Positions 6,338 to 48,500 are shown, counted from the stretch's first letter. The stretch is DNA of 50,340 nt from Emiliania huxleyi CCMP1516 (GCF_000372725.1 NW_005201231.1:244679-295018); one strand, 5' to 3'. Numbers and translations are program-made. Notes: generated by a model from the sequence alone, not told the origin.

Positions 6338-6603
6338 CGAAAAAGAAAACAGAAACGGGAAACCCCCAACAGAGGGAGAGGGGAGGGGATGGGAGGACGG
6401 CACGCCCGCCACGCAGGGAGTTTAAAAGAGAGGAGTGTGGGCTCGAGCAGCCGTAAAAAGAAAGAAGCGAGCCAGCCCAAGGGAGGGATGGGAGGACGGC
6501 ACGCCGCCACCACACAGGGATTTTAAGGAGAGGTGTGTGATGCGCTAGCCGTCGCCCACCCTAGGGAGTCTGCCTCTTCCTATCGAGCAGCCGTCGCCCT
6601 CTA
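6338..6603 (-). mobile_element. Nested pair of related retroposon 3' ends with (TTTC)n-type tails
   Basis: Inner copy 6455-6582 is flanked by the 12-bp TSD TCGAGCAGCCGT (6443-6454, 6583-6594) inside a more diverged copy; the core GGGATGGGAGGACGGCACGCC recurs at ~22870, ~36490 and ~37380. Confidence 0.7.
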
Positions 6604-13107: not shown

Positions 13108-16100
13108 ATGGCCGGCATCTCCGCCGATGACGAGCTCCTTCACGCCGCCGCCACACCCGACGATGAGCTCCGTGCGGCCACCGAGGCACGGGCGCCGCCC
13201 GCCAACGAGCACAACTCGTCGGATGAGGGCGTCACCGACGACCACGGCTCCGATGATGAAGGTAGCTACGACGTTTCGCCTGGCGCGTGGATCGTGCTCC
13301 ACAGCCTACAGGGGAAGCCTGCACTCAACGGCATGGTCGGCTTTGCCCTGGAAGCCACCAGCGGTGCCGGTGGCGAGAGCCGGTGGCTGGTCCAGCTCAT
13401 GCCCTCCTGCGAGCGTCTCAAGGTGAAGCCCGCGAACTTTCAAGTGGTCGCCCCCGCCGATTGGAAGCAGGGGTCCGAGCCCGAAAGGGCGGCCGCCGAG
13501 CGCTTCGCGCGATGCATCCTCGAGGCCTTCGCCGACAGCAGCGGCCCGGCGAAGCTAGCCTTTCCGATTTGCGAGAGTCACCACAACAAATCGCGCAGCG
13601 TCGTCCACGGGGTGGCTCGCGACATGCCGGACCTCTTCTACGAGACGCGGTCGACGGGGCCCAAGGATAACCGGCAGCTGGTCGTGGAGCGGATCGAGAA
13701 GCCGCCGCTCGCGCTGCCGCCACCGAGCGACGCTGCGGGCGCCTCCGACGACCTGTCCCTCTCCAAGTTTGACGAGCTCTGCTTGCTGCTCAACGCCATG
13801 GATGCGGTGCCGAACGAGACGGGGGCAATAGAAAAGCGCAAGCGCATGAGCGCAAGGTTCTGGCGCGGCCTGGCGCCTTCGGGACGCGCGCGGCCGCGGC
13901 ATGCGAGACCCGGCCTCTTCGCCGTCATGCGTCTGCTGGTGCCTCACCACGACTCTCGGCGGTATGGCCTCTCCACGGAGAGGCTGGCCGCCACGTTTGC
14001 GGAGGGGCTGGGGATCGGCAAGCCGCGCGCCAAGGGGATCGGCAAGGCGTGGATGCTCGACGAGAGCGTGGCGCTCGGAGTCACGGGCGACGTCTCGCTG
14101 GTGCTGGAGGCGCTCGCAGTGGAGCGGATCGACCCGCGGCGCGATACGATCCTCACCGTCGGCGCCGTCAACAAGGCTCTCGACGCGATGCAGAATGCCG
14201 GCAAGGTTGATCTGCTGCTGGGCCTGGCGGCGCGGGTCGCCAAGCCGCGCGAGATCAAGTGGCTGACGCGCATTGTGCTGCGTGACCTGCGGATTGGCTC
14301 GCGCCCGAGCAATCCCGTGCCGCAGAAGGGACGCCCCTTCGCGCGTACTCAGTAAGTGATATCTTCCACACACGTACCCCAGCCCCTCTGTCCAAGCTAG
14401 GCGAGTACCCCAAGCTCGTCATGGACGGCCTCTGCCGCGCCAAGGGGCGGCTCGGCAAGCCCTCCGACCAGAGCGCGGGCTCGCCGCCCATGATGTACGC
14501 GACGCTGCGCTACCAGAACAACTTGGAGCGCGTGTGCGAGGCGGCGGAGCGCGGCGTGCTTCCGCGAGCCTACCCGCCACCAGTGCAGCTCGGCATACAC
14601 GTAAGAGCGCAGCTGAGCGTGCCGTGCCCCAACCTCGATGCCGCCGCGCGGCAGCTCGGCACCAACGACGTCTTCATCGAGACGAAGTTCGATGGGTTCC
14701 GATTTCAGTTGCACTGGCACGGGCGCGACAGGCAAATGCGCTGTTTCTACCGCAGCGGCGTCGAGTGCACGGCCGACGTCGGCGACCTGCTCCCGGCGGT
14801 GGAGCTGGCGCTTGGCGGCGATCCCGAGCAGGTGCTGCGCCGCGACGCTACCGACGAGGCGACGCGCTTGCGTTTCACGTGGCTCGAAAAGGCGTGGGCG
14901 AAGGTCACGCCGGAGCAGCGCGCGGCTTTCACGCACAACACGGCGGACCTCGTGCTCGACGGCGAACTGCTCGTATACGACGAGTCGATGACACCAAAGG
15001 GCCTCTACGACGAGCTCGGCACGCGATCCGGCATCGCCGCCTTTGGCACCAACTTTTGGGTGCGGCAGACGGCCGACGGCAAGCCGTCAGGCTACTCGCG
15101 GGAGGACGCGCGCCGCCACTACCTTGTCAAGGTGTTTGACGTGCTGCGGTGCGGCAACACTTCCGAGAGGCTTCCGAGACGCTTCCGAGACACCTCCGAG
15201 ACACTTCCGAGACACCTCCGCAGGTACAACGGCGAGGAGATTCTGCGCCGGCCGCTGCACGAGCGGCGCGAGCTGCTCGAGTCGGGCCGCTGCTTCATCG
15301 CCCTACCGCACTACTTGGAGCTGACGCAGAGCGATCGCGTCGACCTGGCCTCGCCGGAGGGACCGCTGCAGGCCGCCTTTGACGAGGCGCGGGCGGCGCA
15401 GGCCGAGGGCTTGATGGTCAAGGCGGCGCACCAGCCTTACGTGCCAAACGGCCGCACCAATGTGCTCAAGTGTAAGGTCGAGTTCATACCTGGCCTCGGC
15501 GACACCGTCACACTGCTGCTGCTGGGGGCGCGTGTGCCGCGAACGCTCGGCGCCGGCGACGAGGCGAGCATGCTGGTGGAGTTCGCCATTGGCGCGCGCG
15601 AGTCGGATGCGGCAGCTGCGCCACTTGTGTGGCTCTTCAACACTTCGGCGCTGCCTTGGCGCGGCTCCTCGCTGACCCAGCCGATGCTCAAGCGGCTCTA
15701 CTTATGCCTGACTGAGGGCTGGGGGCACCGGCCCGCCCTAATGAACCGGCTAGGCGTGGACGAGCCGCCACCGGCATGGATGCGGCAGTGCCCCACAAGC
15801 ACGATGGCGCGGCCCCATTGGGTGCTGCTGGATCCCGAAAGCGCGCCCGTCGTCGAGGTGATGGGCTCGCGCTTCTTGCGGCGGTACAACCAGGACCAGG
15901 ACGCGTCGTCCAACCGGTCGCTCCCGTGGACGATCCGCTTCCCGCGCGTGGCGAGGTGGTTCGAGGAGACGGACGGCGTGGTCGTGGACACCGTCGCGAG
16001 CTTCCGCGCCAAGGCGGTCGCCGCGTTCAGCTCGAGCGGCCCGCAGGACGACGACGACGACGGCGCAGAGGAGGAGGCGCCCGCCGAGCCGCTGGTTCCG

Positions 16101-16592
16101 CTGAAGCCGCTCACGTGGCACCTCGCCCCACCATCGGTGCCCGTCGAGATGCCCGAGACCAGTCGGTGGCAGGCGGAGCTGCGCGACGCCGCGCCGCCCA
16201 CCCCCGCCTCGTCCAGCTCGTCCATGCCGTCGATGCGTTCGCCCAGAGGGCCGGCCGCGAGGCGATCCGGCTACCCCGGGGACGCAGCGAGCAAGGCCAA
16301 GCAGCAGCCCTTCACCGAGGTGCCGCCAACCACTACGCTGCTCGACGTGGACGAGGCGACGAGGCAGCTGCACAAGGCTAAGACGGCGATCGTGCAGTGC
16401 TCCGACGGCACGCTGTACTACTTGCGGGGCATCGACGCGGGCGGGGCTGTCGTGCAGCCTCTGCACGACGGCGGCGAGCGGACACACCCTCTCTCGAGAC
16501 TCCGACAGCTCACCGGCTACGACAGCGACGAAGTCGGGCTGTTGGATGACCCGCGAGTGAGCCTTGCAAAGCGCCAACGCAGAGGGGCGTGA
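13108..16592 (+). CDS. ATP-dependent DNA ligase with N-terminal SH3/KOW-like and R3H-like domains; predicted introns ~14345-14400 and 15149-15223
   Basis: Motif I IETKFDGFR, III LVLDGEL, IIIa VFDVL, IV EGLMVK, V LKCKVEFIPGLGD, VI IRFPRV; ligase DNA-binding-domain features (MRLLVP, GDVS, LTVGAVNKALD, EIKWLTRIVLRDL). Confidence 0.92.
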
Positions 16593-22707: not shown

Positions 22708-22833
22708 ACAGTATACCAGCACATGTACAGGGTTGCGATTGGGATGTGGAGATCTCATTTTTTGAGCTAGATCTAGCCTTCGTATGAAACAAAAGCAAGG
22801 CGGACATGGCAGATCGCTCTCGGGCCCACAGAC

Positions 22834-22930
22834 GGCTAGCACCACACTCCTCTCCTTAAAATCCCTGTGTGGTGGCGGCGTGCCGTCCTCCCATCCCTCC
22901 TTCGGGTTGTCTGTTTTCTTTCTTTCTTTT
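22834..22930 (+). mobile_element. 5'-truncated retroposon with (TTTC)n tail
   Basis: 16-bp TSD TCTCGGGCCCACAGAC (22818-22833, 22931-22946); same family as 6455-6582. Confidence 0.85.
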
Positions 22931-31006: not shown

Positions 31007-32848
31007 ATGCCGTCTGCAAAGGTCGCTCCTTCACTGCCTGGAGATGCGCCGGCTGCTGAGGATGAGTGCACCTTCAACTTCATCAACGCCCAGTTTCTCC
31101 GCGACTACGGCGGGAAGAACCTGCCATTCTTCCAAGAGCTTCGGGCGAGGCACAAGGACCAGATAGTCGAGCAGACGATGACGTATACCGACGTCGTGCA
31201 GGGCAAGTTCCGCGACGACCTGTTGTCCGTCTCGCATCGTTGGATGCAGGGGGACGAGCCTGATCCAGATGGTGAGCAGCTCAAGGCCATCCAGGAGTTC
31301 CTGCGCGAGGATCCAAAGGGAAAGGAGATAAAGTACGTGTGGATGGACTCGGTGAGTATGCCGCAAGACCAGCCCAAGGGCACCATCAAAGACGCTGATA
31401 AGACGGCGTTCAAGAAGATGCTCGCGGAGGTGTGCGCTGTGCGCGCGCGCAATGGCACCGCGGTTCCATGGGACTGACTCGGATCACGGCCACCCTCGCC
31501 GCAGGTCAACATGCTGTACCTCGGCACGACTGTCCTCATCCTCCTCGACCGCTCGTACACCTCGCGCTTCTGGACGCAGTTCGAGGCGTGGCTCTCCATG
31601 CAGCAGGCGTTGCCAGGAGGACTCAGGTCGAGTGTTGGAACGCAGGGTGAGCGCTTCCACATCAAGTGCATTCAGAACGCCGTCGAGCAGGCGGATCAGC
31701 ACGCGCAGACGCTCAAAAACGACTGGGCGAATAAGACGCCAGACGACGCACATGCCATCCTCTCGAAGCCCGACATTAGTGTCACCAACCAAAAGGACAA
31801 GGATGGCCAGCTGCCTAAGATCAAGGCCCTCAACACGACGGTGCAGGCCGCCTTTATCCGTATCAAGCAGCAGAGGGACAAGGTGGAGCGAGAGGCGAGG
31901 GACGCTGAGACGGCGCTGGACGACGCGGCGGCGGACCTTGAGGCGTGCATGCAGAAATTGAAGACCGAGAAGCTGGAGCACGAGCGCCTCGCGGCCGCTG
32001 TGCAACAGGCAAAGGAGGAGCTGGAGGCCTGCAAGAAGCACGGGTGTGCCACGGACCTTCCTCGGCTGAAAGAGGAGATGGCCAAAGCGGTCAAGGAAGA
32101 GGACTACGACAGAAAGGATGTCCTGAAGGAGAAGATCAGCGCCATCTCCGGTATCGAGCCCGCAGCCGCGAAGGTTGAGAAGGCCGAGGCGGAGCTTTCC
32201 GAGCAGCGGAAAACGTTGGATCAGGCGGAGGACGAGAAGGCGGATCTCCAGATTGCGCACCGCGCCTCTTCCCGGCGGCTCACGGAGGCGCAGAACGAGG
32301 CAGCCAAGGTCCGCAAAGAAGCGGAGCAGCAGCAGACGACGTCCGGGCTGGCTACTAAGCCCGTGCCAGCGCGCAAGCTCGCTCCCGACGCCCGCTCGGA
32401 CGACCAATCGAATGGGCAGCCTGCTCCCGCAAAGATGATGCGCGACGATCTCGACCCCGTGCGTCAGAGCAAAGGGCTGCACATGGAGGCGGACGGCGAG
32501 TTCCCGGGCATGATCTCTGCCGAGAAGCTCGACGGGTGCTGGTGGTCGGCGATGCCCTTCCCACCGTTCATCATCCCGCATATGTGCATCAACCGCGTGT
32601 CGCAGGGACCGCACGAGTACAAGCAGTTTATCTGCATGCACGTGGTGGGCCCCATCTTCATCCCGATCAACAACGTGCGCCGGCGCAAGAAGAAGAGCAA
32701 CGACTTCGCGCTGGTAGGAAACGCCGAGTACAGCGTGGTTAAAATGGACGATTTCGACCACTCGACCAGCTCGTGGTGTGGCACGTGGGCCGGCGGGGCT
32801 TTCTTCCAGATCAAGCTTTGCGGGAAGGACCCGCCGCCGCGCTACTAA
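31007..32848 (+). CDS. HET-domain-like protein with coiled coil and UVR-like motif; predicted intron 31430-31504
   Basis: LSVSHRW...PDPDG, YVWMDSVSMPQ, VNMLY and YTSRFWTQFE match HET-domain motifs; EMAKAVKEEDYD resembles the UvrB/C motif. Confidence 0.75.
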
Positions 32849-34030: not shown

Positions 34031-34309
34031 ATCCCGCCGCCCATCTTCGGCCACGCGTATTCTTTTTCCTATTTGCAAAATTCTTTTTCTCCGCCTTCGG
34101 CAACACCGAGGCGTTCTACCGGAACATGGTCGAGGGGCATGGCGCATGGGCCCTACCGCGCGGAGGGAGAGGGAGGCGAGGGGGAGGGGGAGGGGGATGG
34201 AGGGGAGTGTGAGGGGTATGGGGGCGAGGGAATGGAGGGAGAGAGGAAGAGCCAAGGAAGGGCGAGAGGGGGAAGGGGACTGGTCGATGGCATACTAGGG
34301 GGGGCAGGG

Positions 34310-34845
34310 TAGTGGGCGGCGATCGCCGCATACCGTCCTATGGCGGCGAGTATCGCTACGCCAGGGAGGACAAGGACGTCGACGTGCGGCTGCTGCTGTT
34401 CGAGTCGTTCGGTGGGTTTGGGAAGGGGGTCGGCGAGATCCTCTGGGGGGCGGCGAACGTGCTGCAGAACAAGCTGACGCGGGCCCAGTACCTCGATGAG
34501 GTGACTTGGACCACAAAGAGCTGGCTGGGGCTGCAGAAACAGCGCATCTCAGTCGTTCTTCACACGGCCATCGCAGAGCAGATTGTGAATGAGCTTGCCT
34601 GCGGCGAGGGCGGTCGAGTGCACGGAGCTAAGTGCCTCGCCGTCCTCGCGGGAGTCGCTTAGGCGGCTCCAGTGGTGTACCTGTGTTAGTGCCAGTGCGC
34701 GCCAGTCCCGTGCTTAGTGTTGTGCGAGGGAGTTTTGTGAGTGAGTATTCTTGATACGAAACCACGACGACGCACACCAGTCGACTCGCATCGGTTGCCT
34801 CCATTAACGGCGGAGCTATTCTCGCGCCCACACACACACACACAC
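34310..34845 (+). mobile_element. 3' fragment of a non-LTR retrotransposon (restriction-like endonuclease C-terminus, CRE/R2-type) with (CA)n tail
   Basis: ORF end LLFESFGGFG...QRISVVLHTAIA resembles RLE C-termini; the 3' UTR plus CA tail recurs inverted at 43001-43153. Confidence 0.65.
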
Positions 34846-34885
34846 GGGGGGAGGGCAGTTTTTTCGTTAAATTCTTTTCCTCGCG

Positions 34886-36307
34886 ATGTCAGCCCCGCGG
34901 CGCCGCTCGCGCCGCCTCGCCTCCGCCGCCGCCGCCGCACACTGCCCCCTCACCGACCTGCCCCTTGAGCTTCTCGCGCGCGTCATCTCCCGCTGCGACC
35001 CCGCCGACATCGCTCGCGTCGCGGCCGTCTCGCTGCTCTTCCACGCCTCGCTTGCGCTGGAGGGCATCCGCTTGCGCCTGCAAGAGGCCGGCTTCGAGCC
35101 GCCGGCGCAGCTAGAGGGCGAGAGCTGCGCCGTGCAGTGGCTGTGCTACTCGGCCTTGCTGCGCGAGTCCAACCCGCCGGCGAGGCTGGCGGCGGGCCTT
35201 CGGCACAGCGTCTTCATCGACGGCGAGGGGCGGCTCTCGTCGTGCGGCGCGGCAGCGGAGGGAGAGGAGGACGAGGAGGACGAGGAGGACGAGTTTCCAG
35301 GCCTTCTCGGTCACGGCGATGGCGTGCTGCAGCTGAAGACGCCGACCCGCCTCCCATCGCTAATTGGAGGCGAGCGCGCGATTGGTGTGGAGGCGTCACG
35401 ATACTTCAGCCTCGCTCTCTCCGCGGACGGCGCCGTTTGGTCCTGGGGCTGCGGTGAGCTGGGACACGGCGACCAGGAGGATCAGTGGCAGCCAAAGAAG
35501 ATCGAGGCCTTGGCGGGGCAGCGGGCCATCGCTGTGTCGGCTGGACTTAACCACAGCCTCGCCCTCACCGCCGACGGCTCCGTCTGGAGCTGGGGCGATG
35601 GACACTTTGGCCGGTTGGGCCACGGTGACGAGGAGAACCAGCTGCTGCCGAAGAAGATCGAGGCTTTGGCTGGCCAGCGCGTCGTCGCTGTGTCGGCTGG
35701 AGGGGGGCACAGCCTCGCCATCACCGCCGACGGCATTGTCTGGAGCTGGGGCTATGGATACTTGGGCCGGTTGGGCCACGGCGACCAGCAGAACCAGCTG
35801 CTGCCCAAGAAGGTTGAGGCCTTTGCTGCCCAGCGTGTCGTCGCAGTGTCGGCTGAAGGCGGGCACAGCATCGCCATCACCGCCGACGGCGCCGTCTGGA
35901 GCTGGGGCGTTGGCTACTTTGGCCGGCTGGGCCACGGCGACGAGCAGCACCAGCTGCTGCCCAAGAAGATCGAGGCTTTGGCTGGCCAGCGCGTCATCGC
36001 TGTGTCTACTGGAGGGGCTCACAACCTTGCCATCACCGCCGACGGAGCCGTCTGGAGCTGGGGCTATGGAGCCTCTGGCAATCTGGGCCACGGAGACGGG
36101 CAGGGCCAGCTGCTGCCCAAGAAGGTCGAGGCCTTTGCTGGCCAGCGCGTCGTCGCTGTGTCGGCAGGGGAAGACCACAGCCTCGCCCTCGCCGCCGACG
36201 GCGCCGTCTTTACCTGGGGCGGGGGCGAGAGCAGCTGCCTAGGCCATGGAGAGGACCTGTCCAACCAGCTGCAGCCCAAGAAGATCGAGGTCTGGTCGCA
36301 GGAGTGA
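34886..36307 (+). CDS. F-box-like + 7 RCC1-repeat protein, paralog A, intronless
   Basis: LTDLPLELLARVI (F-box-like); 52-aa repeats SAGxxHSLAITADGAVWSWGxGxxGRLGHGD...LLPKKIEA. Confidence 0.93.
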   Translation: MSAPRRRSRRLASAAAAAHCPLTDLPLELLARVISRCDPADIARVAAVSLLFHASLALEGIRLRLQEAGFEPPAQLEGESCAVQWLCYSALLRESNPPARLAAGLRHSVFIDGEGRLSSCGAAAEGEEDEEDEEDEFPGLLGHGDGVLQLKTPTRLPSLIGGERAIGVEASRYFSLALSADGAVWSWGCGELGHGDQEDQWQPKKIEALAGQRAIAVSAGLNHSLALTADGSVWSWGDGHFGRLGHGDEENQLLPKKIEALAGQRVVAVSAGGGHSLAITADGIVWSWGYGYLGRLGHGDQQNQLLPKKVEAFAAQRVVAVSAEGGHSIAITADGAVWSWGVGYFGRLGHGDEQHQLLPKKIEALAGQRVIAVSTGGAHNLAITADGAVWSWGYGASGNLGHGDGQGQLLPKKVEAFAGQRVVAVSAGEDHSLALAADGAVFTWGGGESSCLGHGEDLSNQLQPKKIEVWSQE

Positions 36308-37339
36308 GAGGGGGGCAAGGGGCGCGTGGCTGATAGGAGTACGACCGACTCGGGAGAGGCCAAGATTCGGATGGGGTGGGAGGGCTGGCCAAGCGGAAGC
36401 GCTAGTTCCCTAGAGCTACCGATCTGAGTCGCGCTAAAAAATTCTTTTTCTGCGATGAAGAAAGAAAGAAAACAGACAGGCCAAGGGAGGGATGGGAGGA
36501 GCCAGTCAGTCAGTCAGTCTTACACACCTCCAAGCAAGGAGGACGGGCCCACACGCACACACACGCTGCACACGATTGGCTCGGGAGCCGACACGAGGCA
36601 CGCTGTCACCGGCCGTAGCACTGGGTCCGGACTGCTGGACGCACAACACACAGCTCACAGGACAGCTCACGAGGTGGCGCTGTATAGTGGGGTTCTCAGG
36701 GACCGACACGGGAGAAGAAGGTGGAGCACAGGGACGGGGACACAGAACTCACGAACTGATATCCCACCCCGCGCCGGGGGCGGTGGCGCGCGCGAGCGCC
36801 GGGGTATTTGGACCCGCAGTCTGGCAGGCGCCAGGCCACAGATCCGCCGGCAGAGCCTTCAAGCCGCATCCGCGATCCGCGCCGGCTCTCAGAAGAGATC
36901 CGGCGCGGTGCTGACCGCGTCCTCGCAGCGGACCACCGAGTTCACGATGATGTCCGAGGAGAAGCGGTGCAGCTGCGGCACGATGCGGTAGTCGCACAAT
37001 GCCGCATTGCGGTTTGCGGCACTCCTGCTGCAACGCGCGCGCGGCGGTGAGGAGAGCGCGAGCCCTTGAGCTGCTGGAGTCAGTCCATCGCCCGCGCATG
37101 CGCGCTGGCCTTGAGGTGGTTCCACCAACAACTGGCCCAGGGGTTGTGACCCTGCGCAAAGCGCAGGAATTTGCCGAGCGCGCCCTTGGTCCTAGGGCCC
37201 CGCTCGGGGAGTTGAAGGCGGCCGCCGTGGTGCGCGTAAGGGTTCCGGAGAACCTCTTGGCACCACGCGAGTGGCGGCCGCCACTCCGACGCGCCGCCGG
37301 TGGCGCCGCGCAGAGCGCGCAACACCACCAGCTCGTGAT

Positions 37340-37500
37340 AAAAAGAAAGAAAGAAAGAAAACACACAACCCAAGGGAGGGATGGGAGAACGGCACGCCGC
37401 CACCACACAGGGATTTTAAGGAGAGGAGAGTGTGATGCGCTAGCCGTCGCCCACCCTGGGGAGTAGTCTGCCTCTTCGTATCTCTTTTCGCAGTCTCTCG
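37340..37500 (-). mobile_element. Retroposon 3' end with (TTTC)n tail; shorter copy at ~36456-36500
   Basis: Homologous to 6455-6582 and 22834-22930; 5' boundary unclear. Confidence 0.7.
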
Positions 37501-37663
37501 CCGCTTCTCGCTGCAACCTTCATGCCACCTCGCGGCCGTCCCACTCTCGTCGTTCTCTCCCTTGTCACTTCCTCTGATAGAATTTAGACAAAACAACTCT
37601 CTCTCACAGCAGACAGGCTTCTGATAGAATAGGAAGGCGCAGCGCGGAATTCTTTTCCTCGCG

Positions 37664-39106
37664 ATGTCTGCCCCGCGGCGCCGCTCGCGCCGCCTCGCCG
37701 CCACCGCCGCCCCCTCGCCAATCACGCCGCCGCCCTATCGCCTCCTCGATCTCCCCACGGACCTCCTTGTGCGCGCCGTCTCTCGCTGCGACCCCGCCGA
37801 CATCGCTCGCGTCGCGGCCGTCTCGCTGCTCTTCAACGCTTCTCTCGCGCTGGAGGGCATCCGCTTGTGGGCGCAAGAGCGCGGCTTCGAGCTGCCGGCG
37901 CAGCCAGAGGGCGAGAGCTGCGCCGTGCGGTGGCTGTGCTTCTATGCCTTGCTGCGCGAGGCCAACCCGCCGGCGAGGCTGGCGGCGGGCCTTCGGCACA
38001 GCGTCTTCATCGACGGCGAGGGGCGGCTCTCGTCGTGCGGCGCGGCAGCGGAGGGAGAGGAGGACGAGGAGGACTGGCAGGAGTTTCCAGGCCTTCTCGG
38101 CCACGGCGAGGGCGTGCTGCAGCTTAAGACGCCGACCCGCCTCCCATCGCTAATTGGAGGCGAACGCGCGATTGGTGTGGCGGCGTCATTTTACTTCAGC
38201 CTCGCTCTCTCCGCGCACGGCGCCCTTTGGTCCTGGGGCTGTGGCTACTCTGGCCAGCTGGGCCACGGCGACACGCAGCACCAGCTGCTGCCCAAGAAGA
38301 TCGAGGCCTTTGCTGGCCAGCGCGTCATCGCTGTGTCGGCTGGAGGCGGCCACAGCATCGCCATCACCGCCGACGGTGCCGTGTGGAGCTGGGGCAGTGG
38401 AGGCGATGGCAAGTTGGGCCACGGCGACCTGCAGAACCAGCTGCTGCCGAAGAAGATCGAGGCCTTTGCTGGCCAGCGCGTCATCGCTGTGTCGGCTGGA
38501 GGCGGCCACAGTCTCGCCATCACCGCCGACGGAGCCGTCTGGAGCTGGGGCATGGGTAGCAGTGGCCGGTTGGGCCACGGCGACGGGCAGGAGCAGCTGC
38601 TGCCCAAGAAGATCGAGGCTTTGGCTGGGCAGCGCGTCGTCGCTGTCTCAGCTGGAGCTTACCACAGCATCGCCCGCACCGCCGACGGCGCTGTCTTGAC
38701 CTGGGGCAATGGAGGCGTTGGCAGGCTGGGCCACGGCGACCAGCAGAACCAACTGCTGCCGAAGAAGATCGAGGCCTTGGCTGACTTGCGCGTCGTCGCT
38801 GTGTCGGCTGGACAGTACCACAGCCTCGCCATCACCGCCGACGGCACCGTCTGGAGCTGGGGCTATGGAGACTATGGCACGTCGGGCCACGGCGACGAGC
38901 AGGACCAGCTGCTGCCCAAGAAGATCGAGGCCTTTGCTGACTTGCGCGTCGTCGCTGTGTCGGCTGGAGCGTACCACAGCCTCGCCATTACCGCCGACGG
39001 CGCCGTCTTTACCTGGGGCAAGGGCGAGAGCGGCTGCCTGGGCCACGGAGAGGACCTGTCGAACCAGCTGCTGCCCAAGAAGATCGAGGTGTGGTCGCAG
39101 GAGTGA
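37664..39106 (+). CDS. F-box-like + 7 RCC1-repeat protein, paralog B, intronless
   Basis: Same architecture as paralog A; DNA homology spans ~34870-36420 vs ~37648-39211. Confidence 0.93.
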   Translation: MSAPRRRSRRLAATAAPSPITPPPYRLLDLPTDLLVRAVSRCDPADIARVAAVSLLFNASLALEGIRLWAQERGFELPAQPEGESCAVRWLCFYALLREANPPARLAAGLRHSVFIDGEGRLSSCGAAAEGEEDEEDWQEFPGLLGHGEGVLQLKTPTRLPSLIGGERAIGVAASFYFSLALSAHGALWSWGCGYSGQLGHGDTQHQLLPKKIEAFAGQRVIAVSAGGGHSIAITADGAVWSWGSGGDGKLGHGDLQNQLLPKKIEAFAGQRVIAVSAGGGHSLAITADGAVWSWGMGSSGRLGHGDGQEQLLPKKIEALAGQRVVAVSAGAYHSIARTADGAVLTWGNGGVGRLGHGDQQNQLLPKKIEALADLRVVAVSAGQYHSLAITADGTVWSWGYGDYGTSGHGDEQDQLLPKKIEAFADLRVVAVSAGAYHSLAITADGAVFTWGKGESGCLGHGEDLSNQLLPKKIEVWSQE

Positions 39107-40302
39107 GAGGGGGGCGAGGGGCGTGGCTGATATAGGAGTGCGACCGGCTCGGGAGAGGCCAAGATCCGGATAGGGTGGGAGGGCTGGCCAAGCGCTAGAC
39201 CCTAGAGCTACAGATACTGTGGTGGCTGGGGAGCTGGATGACGTGAGTCGTGACGATCTCAGCCAGCATGTAAAATTCTTTTTCCATAAATTCTTTTGTG
39301 TACCCCCTTGGACCATCCGCGATCCCTGGGAGCGAAGTCAGCTCGCGAGGCATGTCCGTCTTGCCGCCTCTGCTAGCTCCTCTGCCGCGCCCACAACCAC
39401 CGTGAGCTTCGCGCACTGGAACCCGCGCACTACGTCTACGAGTGCTTCCTCAAGGAGCCGACGTGCAGGCGCAACGCCACGGCGGCAGAAGGGGCGGCGG
39501 CGAGGGAGAGGACTGGGGAAGCGGCGGCGGGGGGGAAGGTGACGGGGGTAGGAGGGGGAACGGCGATGGGGGCGGTGGAGGTGGCGGGGGGGCGAGGGGG
39601 GGGGGGCGGTAGGGGGGATGGCGAAGTTGGGAGGGAGGGGGCGATAAAGGAAGAGGCAGCTGAGGAGAAGGCGGGCCAAGAAGATCGAGGCGTGGGGTCC
39701 GGGGCAGTGAGGGAAAGGGCGAAGGGCGCACAGGAGCGTGCGGCCTATTCTTCACAGGCACGCCCGAGGTGCACAGGAACGTATCCGAGAGGTGAACCGG
39801 GACGACCGGGCGTGCCCTCCTCCACCTCGCGCTTCGCCTCTGTTCTCGTCCGCATCGGGTGGTGCGGTGGGTAGTCGAGGTCTCTGAGGGTAAATTATGT
39901 GGCATGTCGCATGTGGTCATCAGCGGGCCTTGGTGTGTGCTCAGCTCTGCTCAGCCACAGGCTACTCTCTCGTGTAATGGACGAGTTCGTGTGTTCGTCG
40001 GTCGTGGGAGGTGCCGAACAGAAGTTTGAGAACAGACACCCCACCCCGAGCGGGGGGCGCCGGTGTGGGGGGTGTCGATGTGGCGAGGCGCGGCACGAGC
40101 GCGCGTCCGCGCCCCAGTCCGGTGAGCGGTGTCCGCTCGGGCCTCGGGGCACATATACGCGATACGCCACACGACGGGCCACGCGCACGCTCCAGCACAC
40201 CCGTGATGCTCGCGGGTCGCGCGGCTGTCGCGTTGGCTTTTCTAGATCTCGCCTGCGCTGAGCGTGCGGGTGCCGCTCGGCGATTCATGAAGTGTAAAAA
40301 CA

Positions 40303-42606
40303 CTAAGCAGAGCCGCCGCGCCCCGCGCCCCGCCCGCCCCGCCCACCCCGCCCGCCCCGCCCGCCCCGTCCACGCCCCCCTCTCCCCCCTCGCCTACCGA
40401 CCGCCGCCGTGGCGCCCACGGGCTGAGCCTGGGGCGCGGGGCGCGAGGGCGGCTGGTGAACAAACGTCGTCTGCGCCGCCACCAGCCGCCCAGTTGCGGC
40501 GATGGGCAGCGCCGGCTGGCGGCAGGCCGGGCAGTTGCTGTCGCGCTCCAGCACGCGCGGCGCACACGTCTCGCAGTACAGCGCGTGGCCACACGCAAAG
40601 CGGACCGATCGAGGGGCGTCCCAGCAGAGGTCACACAGGCGCTCCTCGGCCCCAGCCGTCTCCTCCACCTCCCCCGCCGCCTCGACTAGCGCCTCCAGCC
40701 GCGGCAGCGCCTCTGCGAGCGGCATCCGCCTCTTCTTCCTCACGAGAGCCAGCCCAACCACCAGCCGCGCCAGCTCCTCGGCCTGCGCCGCTGACCAGCC
40801 CGCGTCGGCCGCCGCGATGCTCTCCGCCGTGTCGGGCTCCTCCAGCGCGTCGTCGCACGCGTTGAGCAAGCCGACGGCGCCGCGGCCGGTCAGGGCGACG
40901 AGAAGCGTGATGCCGAGCGCAAAGCCATCAGTGAGCTGCGAAGCCTGGTTGTCCAGCGAGATGATCGGGTCCATGTAGCCGGGCTTTCCAAAGATACGCT
41001 GCGTCGACAAGTGCGAGACCTGCTGGCTGCCGCCGGCCGTCGCCTCTGCCGCGCGCGCGAGGCCCACGTCGGCGAGGTAGCCGTTGCCGCGCTCGTCGAG
41101 CAGGATGTTGCCCGCCGAGACGTCGCGGTGCAGGATCATCGGAGAGAGCGTGTGCAGGTAGTGCAGCGCGCTCGCTGCGTCGCGCAGCACGCGGAGCCGT
41201 GCAGCGGAGGAGAGCGGCGGAGGCGGCGACTCGAAGCCGAGCATGCGGAGCCGCTGCAGTGCGGCTGGCGAGCGGTAGAGGCGGTCCTCGGCATCGATCT
41301 CGGCGTGGCCCTTCTCCTTGGCCAGCTGCAGCGCCGTCTTGCCGCTCGCACTGCGCGCCGTCGCATCTGCGCCAGCCCGCAGCAAGCGCCGCACGACGGC
41401 GAGTTGGTTGAAGACGGCGGCGTACATCAGCGCGGTGCCGCGTTTGCTGGTCTGCAGGTTGATCTCCGCGCCGTGCCGCAGCAGCAGCTCGACCACCCGC
41501 TCGTGGCCGCAGTTGGCGGCGGCCATCAGCGCGGTGATGCCGAGGCTGTCCTGCTTGTTGATCTCCGCGCCGTGCTGCAGCAGCAGCTCGACCACCCGCT
41601 CGTGGCCGTGCTCGGCGGCGCCCATCAGCAGCGTGATGCCGCTCACGATGCCTCTCTCGTACGTCGCGTCGACCCGCCCGCCTTCCTCAAGCCACGCCAG
41701 CACCGCCTCCTCGTCGCCTCGCCCAGCCGCTGCCACGACCGCATCGGAGACTGCCACGCCACCGCTCGGCGCCGCCGCCGCCGGCGACAGATTACCCGGC
41801 CGCACCCGCACGCTCTCGCCGCCGCCCTCGAGCGCCACCGCGTACCGCCCGCCCTCGAAGCTCCCCGCCACGCCCCGCTGCCCGTTCAGCTCGGGGCGGG
41901 AAGAGAGCCCGCCGAGCTCGACTCGCTGGCCGAGCAGCGGCGCGTCCACAGCTGCCGCTGCCGCGCCCGAGGAAGCTCCGCCCGGCCCCGCCCGGCCGTC
42001 TGCAGCCGCCGCCGCCTCAGCCAAGACCTTGACGCACTCGGCGTGGCCCTTCTCCTTGGCCAGCTGCAGCGCCGTCTTGCCGCTCGTGGCTCGCACCGCC
42101 CAATCCGCGCCCGCCCGCAGCAAGCGCCGCACGACGGCGGGATGGTTCAAGAGGGCGGCGTACATCAGCGCGGTGTGGCCGCCGCTGTCCCGCAAGTTGA
42201 CCTCAGCGCGCTGTAGCAACTCGACCACCCGCTCGTGGCCGAATCCGGCGGCAGCCATCAGCGCGGTGTAGCCGCCACTGTCCTGCAGGTTGACCTCAGC
42301 GCCGTGCCGAATCAGCAATTCGACCACCCGCTCGTGGCCGTGGCGGGCGGCGTACATCAGCGCGGTGCCGCCGACGCTGTCCTGCAGGTTGATCTTCGCC
42401 CCGCGCCGCAGCAGCAGCTCAATCACCCGCTCGTGGCCTTGGTTGGCGGCGCCCATCATCAGCGTGATGCCGCTAATCTTGCCTCTCTCGTACGTCGCGT
42501 CGGCCCGCCCGCCGCCCTCAAGCCACGCCAACACTGCCTCCTCCTCGCCTCGCTCCGCCGCTAGCACGGCCGCGTCGAAGCGGCTCTGGGAATCTGCACT
42601 CACCAT
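40303..42606 (-). CDS. Ankyrin repeats - SH3/KOW-like - ankyrin repeats - partial IRAK/Pelle-like kinase - C3HC4 RING - RGG tail, intronless
   Basis: TALMxAAxxGHERVVELL repeats; LHYLH, HRDVSAGNILLD, DVGLAR, GKPGYMDP; CDLC...CGHALYCETC...CPAC. Start assigned to the ATG at 42606. Confidence 0.85.
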   Translation of the reverse strand: MVSADSQSRFDAAVLAAERGEEEAVLAWLEGGGRADATYERGKISGITLMMGAANQGHERVIELLLRRGAKINLQDSVGGTALMYAARHGHERVVELLIRHGAEVNLQDSGGYTALMAAAGFGHERVVELLQRAEVNLRDSGGHTALMYAALLNHPAVVRRLLRAGADWAVRATSGKTALQLAKEKGHAECVKVLAEAAAAADGRAGPGGASSGAAAAAVDAPLLGQRVELGGLSSRPELNGQRGVAGSFEGGRYAVALEGGGESVRVRPGNLSPAAAAPSGGVAVSDAVVAAAGRGDEEAVLAWLEEGGRVDATYERGIVSGITLLMGAAEHGHERVVELLLQHGAEINKQDSLGITALMAAANCGHERVVELLLRHGAEINLQTSKRGTALMYAAVFNQLAVVRRLLRAGADATARSASGKTALQLAKEKGHAEIDAEDRLYRSPAALQRLRMLGFESPPPPLSSAARLRVLRDAASALHYLHTLSPMILHRDVSAGNILLDERGNGYLADVGLARAAEATAGGSQQVSHLSTQRIFGKPGYMDPIISLDNQASQLTDGFALGITLLVALTGRGAVGLLNACDDALEEPDTAESIAAADAGWSAAQAEELARLVVGLALVRKKRRMPLAEALPRLEALVEAAGEVEETAGAEERLCDLCWDAPRSVRFACGHALYCETCAPRVLERDSNCPACRQPALPIAATGRLVAAQTTFVHQPPSRPAPQAQPVGATAAVGRRGGRGGRGRGGRGGRGGRGGRGAGRGGSA

Positions 42607-42684: not shown

Positions 42685-42942
42685 GCCGGCCGCCGCGGCC
42701 GCCACCCATGACCAAGGAGAAGCTCCGCGCCAACCTGCGTGGCCTCAAGGCCAGGGTCATCGACACGTCGGCGCTCATCGCGCGCCACGTCGAGCTCAAG
42801 GCGCAGCTTGAGGCGGCAGTCGCCGAGCGGCGCCGCATGGGCGAGGAGAAGGCGGCGGCGGAGAGCACGGCGGCGCTGCGCTCGGCGGCGGAGGCCGCGG
42901 TCAAGCAGCAGCTCGAGGCGGCGCGCGGCGAGGTCCAGCAGC
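42685..42942 (+). pseudogene. Truncated 258-bp copy of the 5' end of the gene starting at 45552
   Basis: Nearly identical to 45529-45786 (MTKEKLRANLRGLK...). Confidence 0.85.
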
Positions 42943-45551: not shown

Positions 45552-48500
45552 ATGACCAAGGAGAAGCTCCGCGCCAACCTGCGTGGCCTCAAGGCCAGGG
45601 TCATCGACACGTCGGCGCTCATCGCGCGCCACGTCGAGCTCAAGGCGCAGCTTGAGGCGGCAGTCGCCGAGCGGCGCCGCATGGGCGAGGAGAAGGCGGC
45701 GGCGGAGAGCACGGCGGCGCTGCGCTCGGCGGCGGAGGCCGCGGTCAAGCAGCAGCTCGAGGCGGCGCGCGGCGAGGTGCAGCAGCACAAGACGGAGAGC
45801 GCGCGGCTGCGCACGCGCCTCTCCGACCTCGAGGCGGTGCTGCTGAGCGAGCGCTCGGCGGCGTCGAGCGCGTCGCAGGCGGCGGTGAAGGTCTCGCTGG
45901 CGGAGCAGGGCGCCACGACGCGCGAGGCCGCCGTGCTCGAGAGGGCGCGAGAGCCGAGGCGGCCAGGACGCGCAGCGCGCTCGGACGGACGTTCTCGGAC
46001 CCTTCTTCTAGGAGCGGGAGCTCGAGGCGGCGATCGCCGAGGCGCAGGCGGAGCGAGAGGAGGCGGCCAAGCAGCGGCGCGAGGCGGCGGAGGAGCGAGC
46101 CACCTTCCAGACGACGATCGCCGCCGTGGAGCGCCGCGCGCAAGCCTAGATGCTTCCTATCTCGGCCTATCTCGGCCAGATCTCCCCACACCTCCCCAAA
46201 TCTCCCCAAATCTCGCCGTGCGCGACGGCGTGGCGCTCGAGAGGTCACGGACTCTTAGACCCTCGCACTCCCGTCTTGACTTGGCCACTCACAAGGCGCA
46301 GGCGCCAGAGCAGCGGCGGAGGAGAGCAGCCGCGCCGGCGCTGCTGCCAACCTCGCTCGGGGTCTGCTCACACCTTCAGCTGTGAACAGGAGAGCAGCCG
46401 CGCGAGGGCGGCGCTCGAGGAGGCGGTGGCGAAGGCGCGGAGCGAAGGGGTGGAGGAGGGCAGGGCGGCGATGCAGACGTGCCGCGACGCGACGGCGGAG
46501 GCCGAGGCGCGGGCGGCGCGCGCAGCGGCGGCGGCGGAGGCGCTGCAAGCTCGGGTGGCGGAGCTGGAGGCGGCGAGGGAGGAGCCGCAGGCGGCGAGGG
46601 AGGAGGAGGGCGGCGCGGTGGGCGGCGGCCCATCCCTGATTGGAGCTCACCCACTGCGCATGGGGGCGGCGGTGGCGGTCGCTCTCGGCGCGGCCGTGAA
46701 GAGTCCGCCCGGCTGCGCCTTCGCCGTCGACGCCCCTTCGCCGCCGTGCCGCGGCCGGGGAAGCAGCGCGCAAGCTTCGCCCGCCTCATTGGGCCGGGGA
46801 AGCAGCGCGCAAGCTTCGCCCGCCTCCCGCGGCCGCCCGCCGCCAGCGTCGCTGTCCGAGTCGGCGCAGCGGGGGGCGCGGGCGGTGCGCATGGCACGAG
46901 ATCGGCGCAGATCAGGCGAGATGAGCCGAGCATAGGCTGCGCAGCTTGGGCGCGGGCTGGCGCACGAGCTGCCGTCTCCAGCCCGCTGCAGCTCGCGCTT
47001 CTCTCCCGCTCGCTGCGCCTCGCAGGCCTCTCCTGCCTGCGACGGCCAAAGGAGCGGTCAGCCGTCTCCAGCACGCAGAGCAGAGCCGCCACCGGCCCGC
47101 GTGAGTGTGAGGAGCGGGGGCTGCAGCGCGCAGCCGTCGCCAGCAGCTAAGTCGCCAGCAGCGGCTAAGTCGCCAGCGGCTAGGTCGCCAGCAGCTAAGT
47201 CGCCAGTAGCGGCTAAGTCCCCAGCGGCTAGGTCGCCAGCGGCGAAGTCGCCATCGGGTAGGTCGGCGGCGGTTCCGTCGCCAGCTGCGCCTTGCGAGCC
47301 GGGCGCGGCATCGTGGGACGAGCTTGACGACGAGGATTGGGAGGAGGGGCCTGCGGCGCCAGACTTGCCTGACCTGCTCCCGGACCCGCTGCCAGAGCGA
47401 GCCGCTTCGCCGCCATGGCCGGCTGCGACAGAGGAGGCGGAGGAGGCGGAGGAGGCGAGGGAGGAGGCGGAGGAGGCGAGGGAGGAGGCGGAGGAGGCGA
47501 GGGAGGAGGCGGAGGAGGCGAGGGAGGAGGCGGAGGAAGCGAGGGAGGAGGCGGAGGAGGCGGAGGAGGCGAGGGGGGAGGCGGAGGAGGCGAGGGAGGA
47601 GGAGAGGGAGGAGGCGAGGGAGGAGGCGCAGAGGGAGGTTTCCGGTGTCGCCGAGTCGCGTCGCTGTGCTCCCGCCGCTGCTACTGCTGCTGCACTTTCC
47701 GCCGCTACTGCTACTGCTGCTCCTGCTGCTGCCGCAGCGGCTGCGACCGGCACCGGCGCCGGCGCCGGTAAGCGAGCCTCTGGCCGGCGCAGCGTCGGCA
47801 GCCCCGTGGCGGGCCCAAACCCGAAGCGGAGGAGGCATCAAAAGGAGCGGTCTGCCGCCCCGCCGGCACGGGCCACGCGAGGCGGCGCGGCGGCCGCGGC
47901 CGCGGTGAGGACGACCACCGGCAGTGCGGCTTTCCCAACGCTGGAGGGTCGGGGGCTTGGGCTTGCCGCCGCGGCGGCGGCGCCCTCAGCCGCCGCGCTT
48001 GCGCCTGCTGCCGCCGCCGCGGCGCCCGCTGCTGCTGCCCCGGCGCGTGTTGCTGCTGCGGCGAGGCCCCTCGGACGACGCAGCGTTGTGCACCAGCCAA
48101 GCGCGGCCGCGGCGGCCGCCGCTACCGCGGCGGCGAGAGGCTTCGGAGCGGAGAGCGTTGGTGCAGGTGCTTCCACCTCTCTCTACGTGCTGCCGGCCCC
48201 GCCCAAGCCGAAAGGACGGGCCAGTCGTTCGCGGGGGCCTCCAGCTGCTGGGACATCGGCATCCGCTGCTGCTGGGACATCGGCATCTGCTGCTGCTGGG
48301 ACATCGGCATCTGCTGCTGCTGGGACATCGGCATCCGCTGCTGCTGGGACATCGGCATCCGCTGCTGCTGGGACATCGGCATCTGCTGCTGCTGAGACGG
48401 CATCCGCTGCTTCCGATCCTCCCGCCAGCAGCAGCGGATGCGCCTCACCGGCGAGCCGCGGCGGTGCGGCGGCCTTGCCGTCCTCCAAGCGGCCGCGGCA

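Follow-up and report, generated by a model that had tools for sequence, protein, structure and literature searches.

Homogenised blades and hypervariable surface codons in a dispersed Emiliania-type family of F-box-RCC1 genes

A window of 50,340 nucleotides from Emiliania huxleyi CCMP1516 (NW_005201231.1:244679-295018; positions below are counted from its first letter) contains two genes, A and B, each encoding an N-terminal F-box-like domain followed by a propeller of RCC1 repeats in which eight codons per blade bear the marks of diversifying selection (Table 1). Pfam detected the RCC1 repeats (PF00415) in A and B with E-values of 1e-88 and 1e-98, and Tandem Repeats Finder placed 156-bp arrays with 82% matches at 35458-36221 and 38257-39089. 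At the DNA level, the eight core blades of the two genes shared 83.5% identity when compared within a gene and 83.7% when those of A were compared with those of B. Within the 52-codon unit we distinguished eight variable codons (14, 15, 31, 33, 34, 36, 42 and 44) from the other 44, referred to as framework; protein identity among these blades was 86.6% at framework positions and 20.1% at variable ones. A first-pass annotation made from the sequence alone had described the repeats as highly similar within and between the genes and as differing at fixed positions, which the arrays and identity figures bear out. The residues it listed for the motifs AG-XX-H and WG-X-G-XX-G-X agree with our translations of A and B, and the variability it saw in GD-X-Q-X was found as well (positions 42 and 44). 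It had also called both genes intronless in an intron-rich region; A and B are indeed single open reading frames (ORFs), but the contrast carries little weight because the neighbouring gene at 40303-42606 is likewise one long ORF. A and B are mosaic relatives, their N-terminal domains being separated by a distance of 0.138 (family mean 0.10), yet 91-100% identical over 35151-35390. The acidic insert in the first blade measured 4-23 aa across the listed family classes.

Table 1. Features of genes A and B and their surroundings (positions in the window)
Feature	Position	Strand	Remarks
T-rich motif directly 5' of the ATG of A	34869..34885	+	start of family homology
Gene A: F-box-like domain and RCC1 propeller, 473 aa	34886..36307	+	single intact ORF
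F-box-like motif of A (aa 22-53)	34949..35044	+	PF12937 E 4e-4, PF00646 E 1.5e-3, under curated cut-offs
Acidic insert in loop of first blade of A	35258..35293	+	counterpart in B
Core blades of A: four homogenised 156-bp units	35507..36130	+	
About 115 bp 3' of the stop of A	36308..36423	+	common to 39107-39215 after B
T-rich motif directly 5' of the ATG of B	37648..37663	+	as before A
Gene B: F-box-like domain and RCC1 propeller, 480 aa	37664..39106	+	single intact ORF
F-box-like motif of B (aa 27-69)	37742..37870	+	trimmed: 20.5 bits, equal to PF00646 cut-off
Core blades of B: four homogenised 156-bp units	38306..38929	+	same eight variable codons as A
3'-terminal relic of a third family gene	39676..39745	+	87% to locus L047 over 71 bp; 10 other loci match at coding end

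By sequence similarity, A and B belong to a large haptophyte family of the Emiliania type whose genes are dispersed. The best 120 relatives of B were 64-77% identical, the named ones being E. huxleyi CCMP1516 proteins. Using the N-terminal 106 aa as query returned at least 172 clusters of near length and 204 shorter ones, a profile run against 1.84 billion representatives matched 78 of them, and the Atlas look-alikes with an F-box were mostly from Haptophyta. A metagenome scan yielded 141 relatives, 80 of which were retained, with 47 supplied by one assembly, 31 by another and 2 by others; the near-duplicates L021, L031, L060 and L063 (on a second contig, >98% identity) and L081 were dropped ahead of all counts. 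The flanks of these loci have repeats in common with the window (up to 94%), and their source is therefore a close relative. Among 76 loci, in a set biased toward intact copies, 56 had a single uninterrupted frame, frameshifts affected 16, and the remaining 4 were flagged for stops, some of these through alignment overhang. Family homology starts about 15-20 bases 5' of the ATG and mostly ends shortly 3' of the stop, and Pfam analysis of 111 of the 194 flanking ORFs (five locus ORFs were scanned besides) revealed scattered housekeeping families and no recurrent neighbour. With homology limited to the gene and no recurring neighbours, the family is therefore dispersed.

Retroposition with target-site duplications was considered as a means of dispersal and rejected, the flank match averaging 6.5 nt within the same locus vs 6.7 nt across loci (13 loci, of which one had an empty flank), although such duplications may have been lost from old copies. 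A viral origin was rejected as well: the N-terminal profile gave no match in viral contigs, where a single distant RCC1 array at 35% was found. This is viral contig L081:669-6817, on which four tandem RCC1 genes have homogenised blades just 35% identical to B. Family propellers are fused in frame with HMG boxes in L062:135-2594 and P0313, and P0326 combines ankyrins, F-box and RCC1 repeats. Among the listed short N-terminal matches 32 of 120 belong to 'merc', which we take to be the catalogue assembled, according to the available text of its description, from 775 marine metatranscriptomes (10.1101/386110). Transcription of the family is therefore probable. The share of the region's words present in six RNA runs was 0.20-0.33, in a region that contains high-copy repeats.

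The RCC1 repeats of A and B are predicted to form a closed seven-bladed propeller. A model of B (predicted local distance difference test score, pLDDT, 81.6) had UVR8 as its top Foldseek match, with a root mean square deviation of 1.6 and a target template modelling score of 0.94, and the RCC1-like domains of UVR8 and HERC2 were the best sequence and fold matches. Within a blade, positions 14 and 15 lie between the first two strands and positions 31-44 in the long loop preceding the fourth. In an alignment with UVR8 structure 6XZM, with numbering set by its D96N, D107N and W285A substitutions and positions read by hand, R338, R234, R286 and D77 fell on position 15, D129 on 14, R146 on 31, R200, K304 and Q148 on 33, D44 and N149 on 34, and D107 on 44, while position 42 had no such anchor. 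The available part of PMC9020657 names eleven UVR8 residues for COP1 interface II, on the side face of COP1, and all eleven fall on positions 14, 15, 31, 33 or 34, a count taken from the alignment and not a measured distance. The alignment supports placing the variable positions on one predicted face, the partner-binding one of UVR8, where the first-pass annotation had put these loops.

Several tests, among them the per-codon comparison of nonsynonymous and synonymous rates on repeat alignments that had been suggested as a check, revealed an excess of amino-acid change at these fixed codons. Across 252 ungapped blades of 73 genes (71 loci together with A and B), nonsynonymous divergence (pN) was 0.59 at the eight codons and 0.10 at the framework, where synonymous divergence (pS) was 0.257. 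The combination of eight residues was unique in every one of the 252 blades, and each variable site accommodated 14-20 residue types. When the 221 core blades of the 73 genes were considered, diversity at the first and second bases of the eight codons was 0.617 vs 0.263 at 22 four-fold framework sites, a ratio of 2.34 (2.21-2.47 in a gene bootstrap), and the same pattern was obtained from subsets of the data (0.62/0.27 and 0.62/0.26) as well as from the window's own eight blades (0.61/0.22). A codon model with site-specific rates placed the amino-acid rate (beta) above the silent rate (alpha) at all eight variable sites (p 7e-3 to 6e-58) and at one of the 44 framework sites (position 20, marginal at p 0.04), and six of the eight sites individually surpassed a conservative neutral simulation (0-58 of 2000). 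At codons 31, 36, 42 and 44 the silent rate was at or below that of the framework and amino-acid change was 4-8 times as high, and third bases retained the ancestral state while the first two varied (codon 31 ends in T in 69% of cases, codon 36 in G in 93%). Eight positions per blade change faster than silent sites, which supports diversifying selection.

Two other classifications were rejected. Diversity-generating retroelements introduce adenine-specific variation from a template repeat, together with a reverse transcriptase. The variable codons of the family were not centred on A (at the first base of codon 33, A made up 8% and G 76%), framework AAG codons were stable, and no reverse transcriptase was found among the 111 flanking ORFs. 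The genes are not UV-B receptors either, because the tryptophan and arginine positions of the UVR8 GWRHT motif correspond to 14 and 15 and are exactly those that vary.

The blades lacked a positional or tree-like signal. For the three indices nearest the end (109 blades), blades of different genes were separated by a distance of 0.1239 when they shared an index and 0.1244 when they did not; the distance within genes was 0.1159, below all 300 permutations. The nearest neighbour of 148 blades belonged to the same gene in 14 cases, to the same index in 36 and to neither in 98. Common framework variants were unlinked, with four gametes in 362 of 373 pairs and r2 at the level of independence past 10 bp. 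Adjacent variable codons co-occurred above all 1000 shuffles (14+15, 123 vs 72; 31-36, 13 vs 3; 42+44, 828 vs 614), and co-occurrence above chance was lacking in these shuffles for 33+34 alone and for four more distant codon pairs. As a sign of uniform DNA around the main loop, silent diversity at the five glycine codons at 30-40 was 0.10 vs 0.31 elsewhere (p 0.003, post hoc and with codon preference uncontrolled). Blade number also varied, with 5-9 GHG motifs per protein. This pattern fits short-patch conversion together with unequal crossing-over. The loss of positional signal and linkage is thus consistent with the exchange of repeats that the first-pass annotation had envisaged, but recurrent mutation could leave the same trace, and epistasis could be a further source of the blade pattern.

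Sequence criteria class the N-terminal motif as a predicted F-box. The N-termini of 25 members matched PF12937 in 25 cases and PF00646 in 21 at E <= 0.1 (best E 1e-7), L046 passed both Pfam cut-offs, and L-x-D-L-P as well as the downstream D-I-A-R...V were near invariant in all 25. Distant relatives retain the motif, with blades that appeared less uniform when judged by eye. Helices were predicted at 6-14, 18-31 and 33-46 of the N-terminal domain, its pN/pS was 0.59 (30 sequences), and a sequence profile search of the PDB gave no match to it. In the N-termini of A, B and the family, a basic arginine-rich motif, possibly a nuclear signal, lies ahead of the F-box in 75 of 120 proteins.

Beyond the architecture, the family size, the excess change, the mapping to one face by alignment and the missing blade genealogy, all of which we regard as established, we propose with moderate confidence that these proteins act as adaptors of Skp1-Cullin1-F-box (SCF) ubiquitin ligases with variable specificity, under diversifying selection and probably directed against fast-changing foreign proteins. 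The N-terminal motif would dock on Skp1-Cullin1, and every propeller would bind a different substrate and deliver it to the proteasome. Short gene-conversion patches and unequal crossing-over between blades and genes would keep the scaffold uniform while reshuffling the loops. The substrates may stem from viruses or other intracellular parasites, foreign targets being proposed because of the analogy with nematode F-box genes and fungal NOD-like receptor (NLR) repeats.

These two systems, along with a mammalian protein of the same architecture, provide the closest comparisons. According to the accessible portions of PMC4986451 and PMC12222747, the propeller repeats of the Podospora anserina HNWD NLRs (het-d, het-e), and of fungal NLRs whose internal repeats are highly conserved, are >80% identical, vary in number and evolve in concert, with a few codons of the interaction surface under diversifying selection. 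The A/B family resembles them in its high internal repeat conservation and in having fixed diversifying codons on a predicted binding surface. It differs in carrying RCC1 instead of WD40 repeats and eight variable codons instead of four, and Pfam found no NACHT/NB-ARC, HET or N-terminal death effector domain in A or B; the family would work like an NLR without being one. HNWD repeats also cluster mainly by gene, unlike the blades described here, which seldom had a blade of the same gene as nearest neighbour. In Caenorhabditis, hundreds of F-box genes combine a conserved F-box with positive selection in the substrate domain (FTH/FBA), and an anti-pathogen role has been proposed (PMC8120010, available text). 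The substrate domain of A and B, in contrast, is a tandem-repeat propeller with homogenised blades, and its diversity is therefore combinatorial over seven blades. FBXO24, which was among the Atlas look-alikes and is likened here by architecture and not by orthology, has F-box and RCC1 repeats in the same order; it binds SKP1, CUL1 and RBX1, is highly conserved and has the host substrate MIWI (PMC10932545, in the part available), an analogy showing that this architecture can be that of an SCF subunit.

Several observations weigh against the proposal of diversifying SCF adaptors. The codon-model tree is unreliable under exchange, for which reason the pairwise figures were given more weight; codons 36 and 42 were not individually above the conservative neutral simulation (323 and 169 of 2000), and in the codon model silent rates, too, were raised at codons 14 and 15. 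Unlinked variants could reflect recurrent mutation on a star-like history, and decay of linkage was discarded as evidence, its first signal having been inflated by a distinct blade class; once first-blade units and same-codon pairs were excluded, 86 of 2000 permutations matched it. Of the 80 kept loci, 78 stem from two assemblies, and 20 of the 76 were flagged as frameshifted or stopped. F-box scores of full-length A and B were just below the Pfam cut-offs, no F-box structure was matched significantly (the Foldseek rows for FBXL2, Skp2 and Fbs2 were at E 6-9), and VIA on the N-terminal domain gave a best Z of 6.2, to unrelated helical domains.

The same adaptors under the same selection could serve internal conflict, with transposon proteins, selfish toxin-antidote or drive factors, or self/non-self or mating determinants as targets. 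The selection signal would be equally expected, A and B lie amid high-copy repeats that the flanks of relatives also contain, and HNWD repeats of Podospora recognise the conspecific protein HET-C (PMC12222747, as far as its available text goes). We consider this unlikely, as no partner gene recurs beside the family in the 111 flanking ORFs and many dispersed copies would suit many targets better than one partner. Diversified binders with a decayed or repurposed F-box, sequestering or signalling rather than ubiquitinating, would account for the sub-threshold scores and the fold searches without a significant match, and N-terminal selection is only moderately purifying; given the near-invariant motifs, their retention in distant relatives, the scores of L046 and the binding of FBXO24 to SKP1 and CUL1, such a loss of SCF function seems distinctly improbable. 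Lower still we place the possibility that the family multiplies without diversifying adaptively and that the eight positions are surface loops free of constraint, perhaps subject to local hypermutation. Even though the same positions differ between blades of ordinary RCC1 proteins such as UVR8, conversion may have depressed silent diversity in the framework, silent rates are raised at codons 14 and 15, and broken copies exist, this explanation was already disfavoured by the six sites beyond neutral simulation and by the four codons with unraised silent rates. Assembly artefacts, in the form of chimeric contigs of repeated genes, are very improbable: short-read unitigs across A and B are heavily fragmented and most loci are metagenome contigs, but the pattern is present in the window's own blades and in proteins of the cultured strain CCMP1516, chimeras rejoin existing variants and cannot yield so many residue types per site, and four loci recur in a second contig.

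Other elements of the window include a single-ORF ankyrin-kinase-RING gene (40303-42606, -) whose near-identical 99-bp ankyrin repeats vary at fixed positions and which may represent another diversifying family. Protein P0273 joins an A/B-type F-box to ankyrins 49-55% identical to those of this gene. Beside the gene, 42764-42893 and 45608-45737 have repeat units in common on the + strand, a local duplication. The two-part gene at 31007-32848 (+) has a coiled coil after an N-terminal part that we take, by its motifs, to resemble a HET/TIR-like domain; Pfam found no such family in this gene. At 34291-34735 (+) lies a high-copy repeat end with an ORF that lacks a Pfam match and presumably resembles the C-terminus of a restriction-endonuclease-type retrotransposon without long terminal repeats. 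In L013, L023 and L055 its tail adjoins the T-rich motif that precedes family genes, which suggests targeted insertion. The T-rich motif itself occurs seven times in the window, in some cases away from family genes, flanks A and B on both sides, and is likely a general promoter-type element that is not specific to the family. An interspersed repeat headed by (AAAG)n is present at 36457-36500, 37340-37485, 6457-6584 and 22831-22929, and four DNA runs show its left edge sharply at 36458. Near-identical, very deep unitigs in other runs mark 36950-37220, which lies between A and B, as a young element present in multiple copies. An ATP-dependent DNA ligase is encoded at 13108-16592 (+) by a gene divided into two ORFs; its N-terminal part is R3H-like.

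The literature searched, which was thin on subscription papers and did not extend to supplementary gene-family tables, contained no earlier description of this haptophyte F-box-RCC1 family, nor does the family appear in the available portions of PMC11685980 or 10.1101/2024.05.26.595999. The ingredients are each known; their union in such a family appears to be new, and a single gene here combines the expansion of F-box genes with the concerted evolution of repeats, both familiar routes to diversification.

What makes coccolithophore strains unequal in their resistance to viruses is an unsolved problem in bloom ecology, and the recognition receptors known from these algae are, to our knowledge, few. 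Tentatively, and as a possibility we would not rate highly, the dozens to hundreds of F-box-RCC1 adaptors may form an intracellular antibody-like repertoire of a bloom-forming coccolithophore. Its binding loops would be exchanged in the form of short DNA modules set between uniform anchor words, giant viruses would exert the selection, and the repertoire would be what makes virus resistance strain-specific. The family supplies concrete candidate recognition receptors with defined variable codons and represents a natural instance of a randomised propeller binder scaffold.

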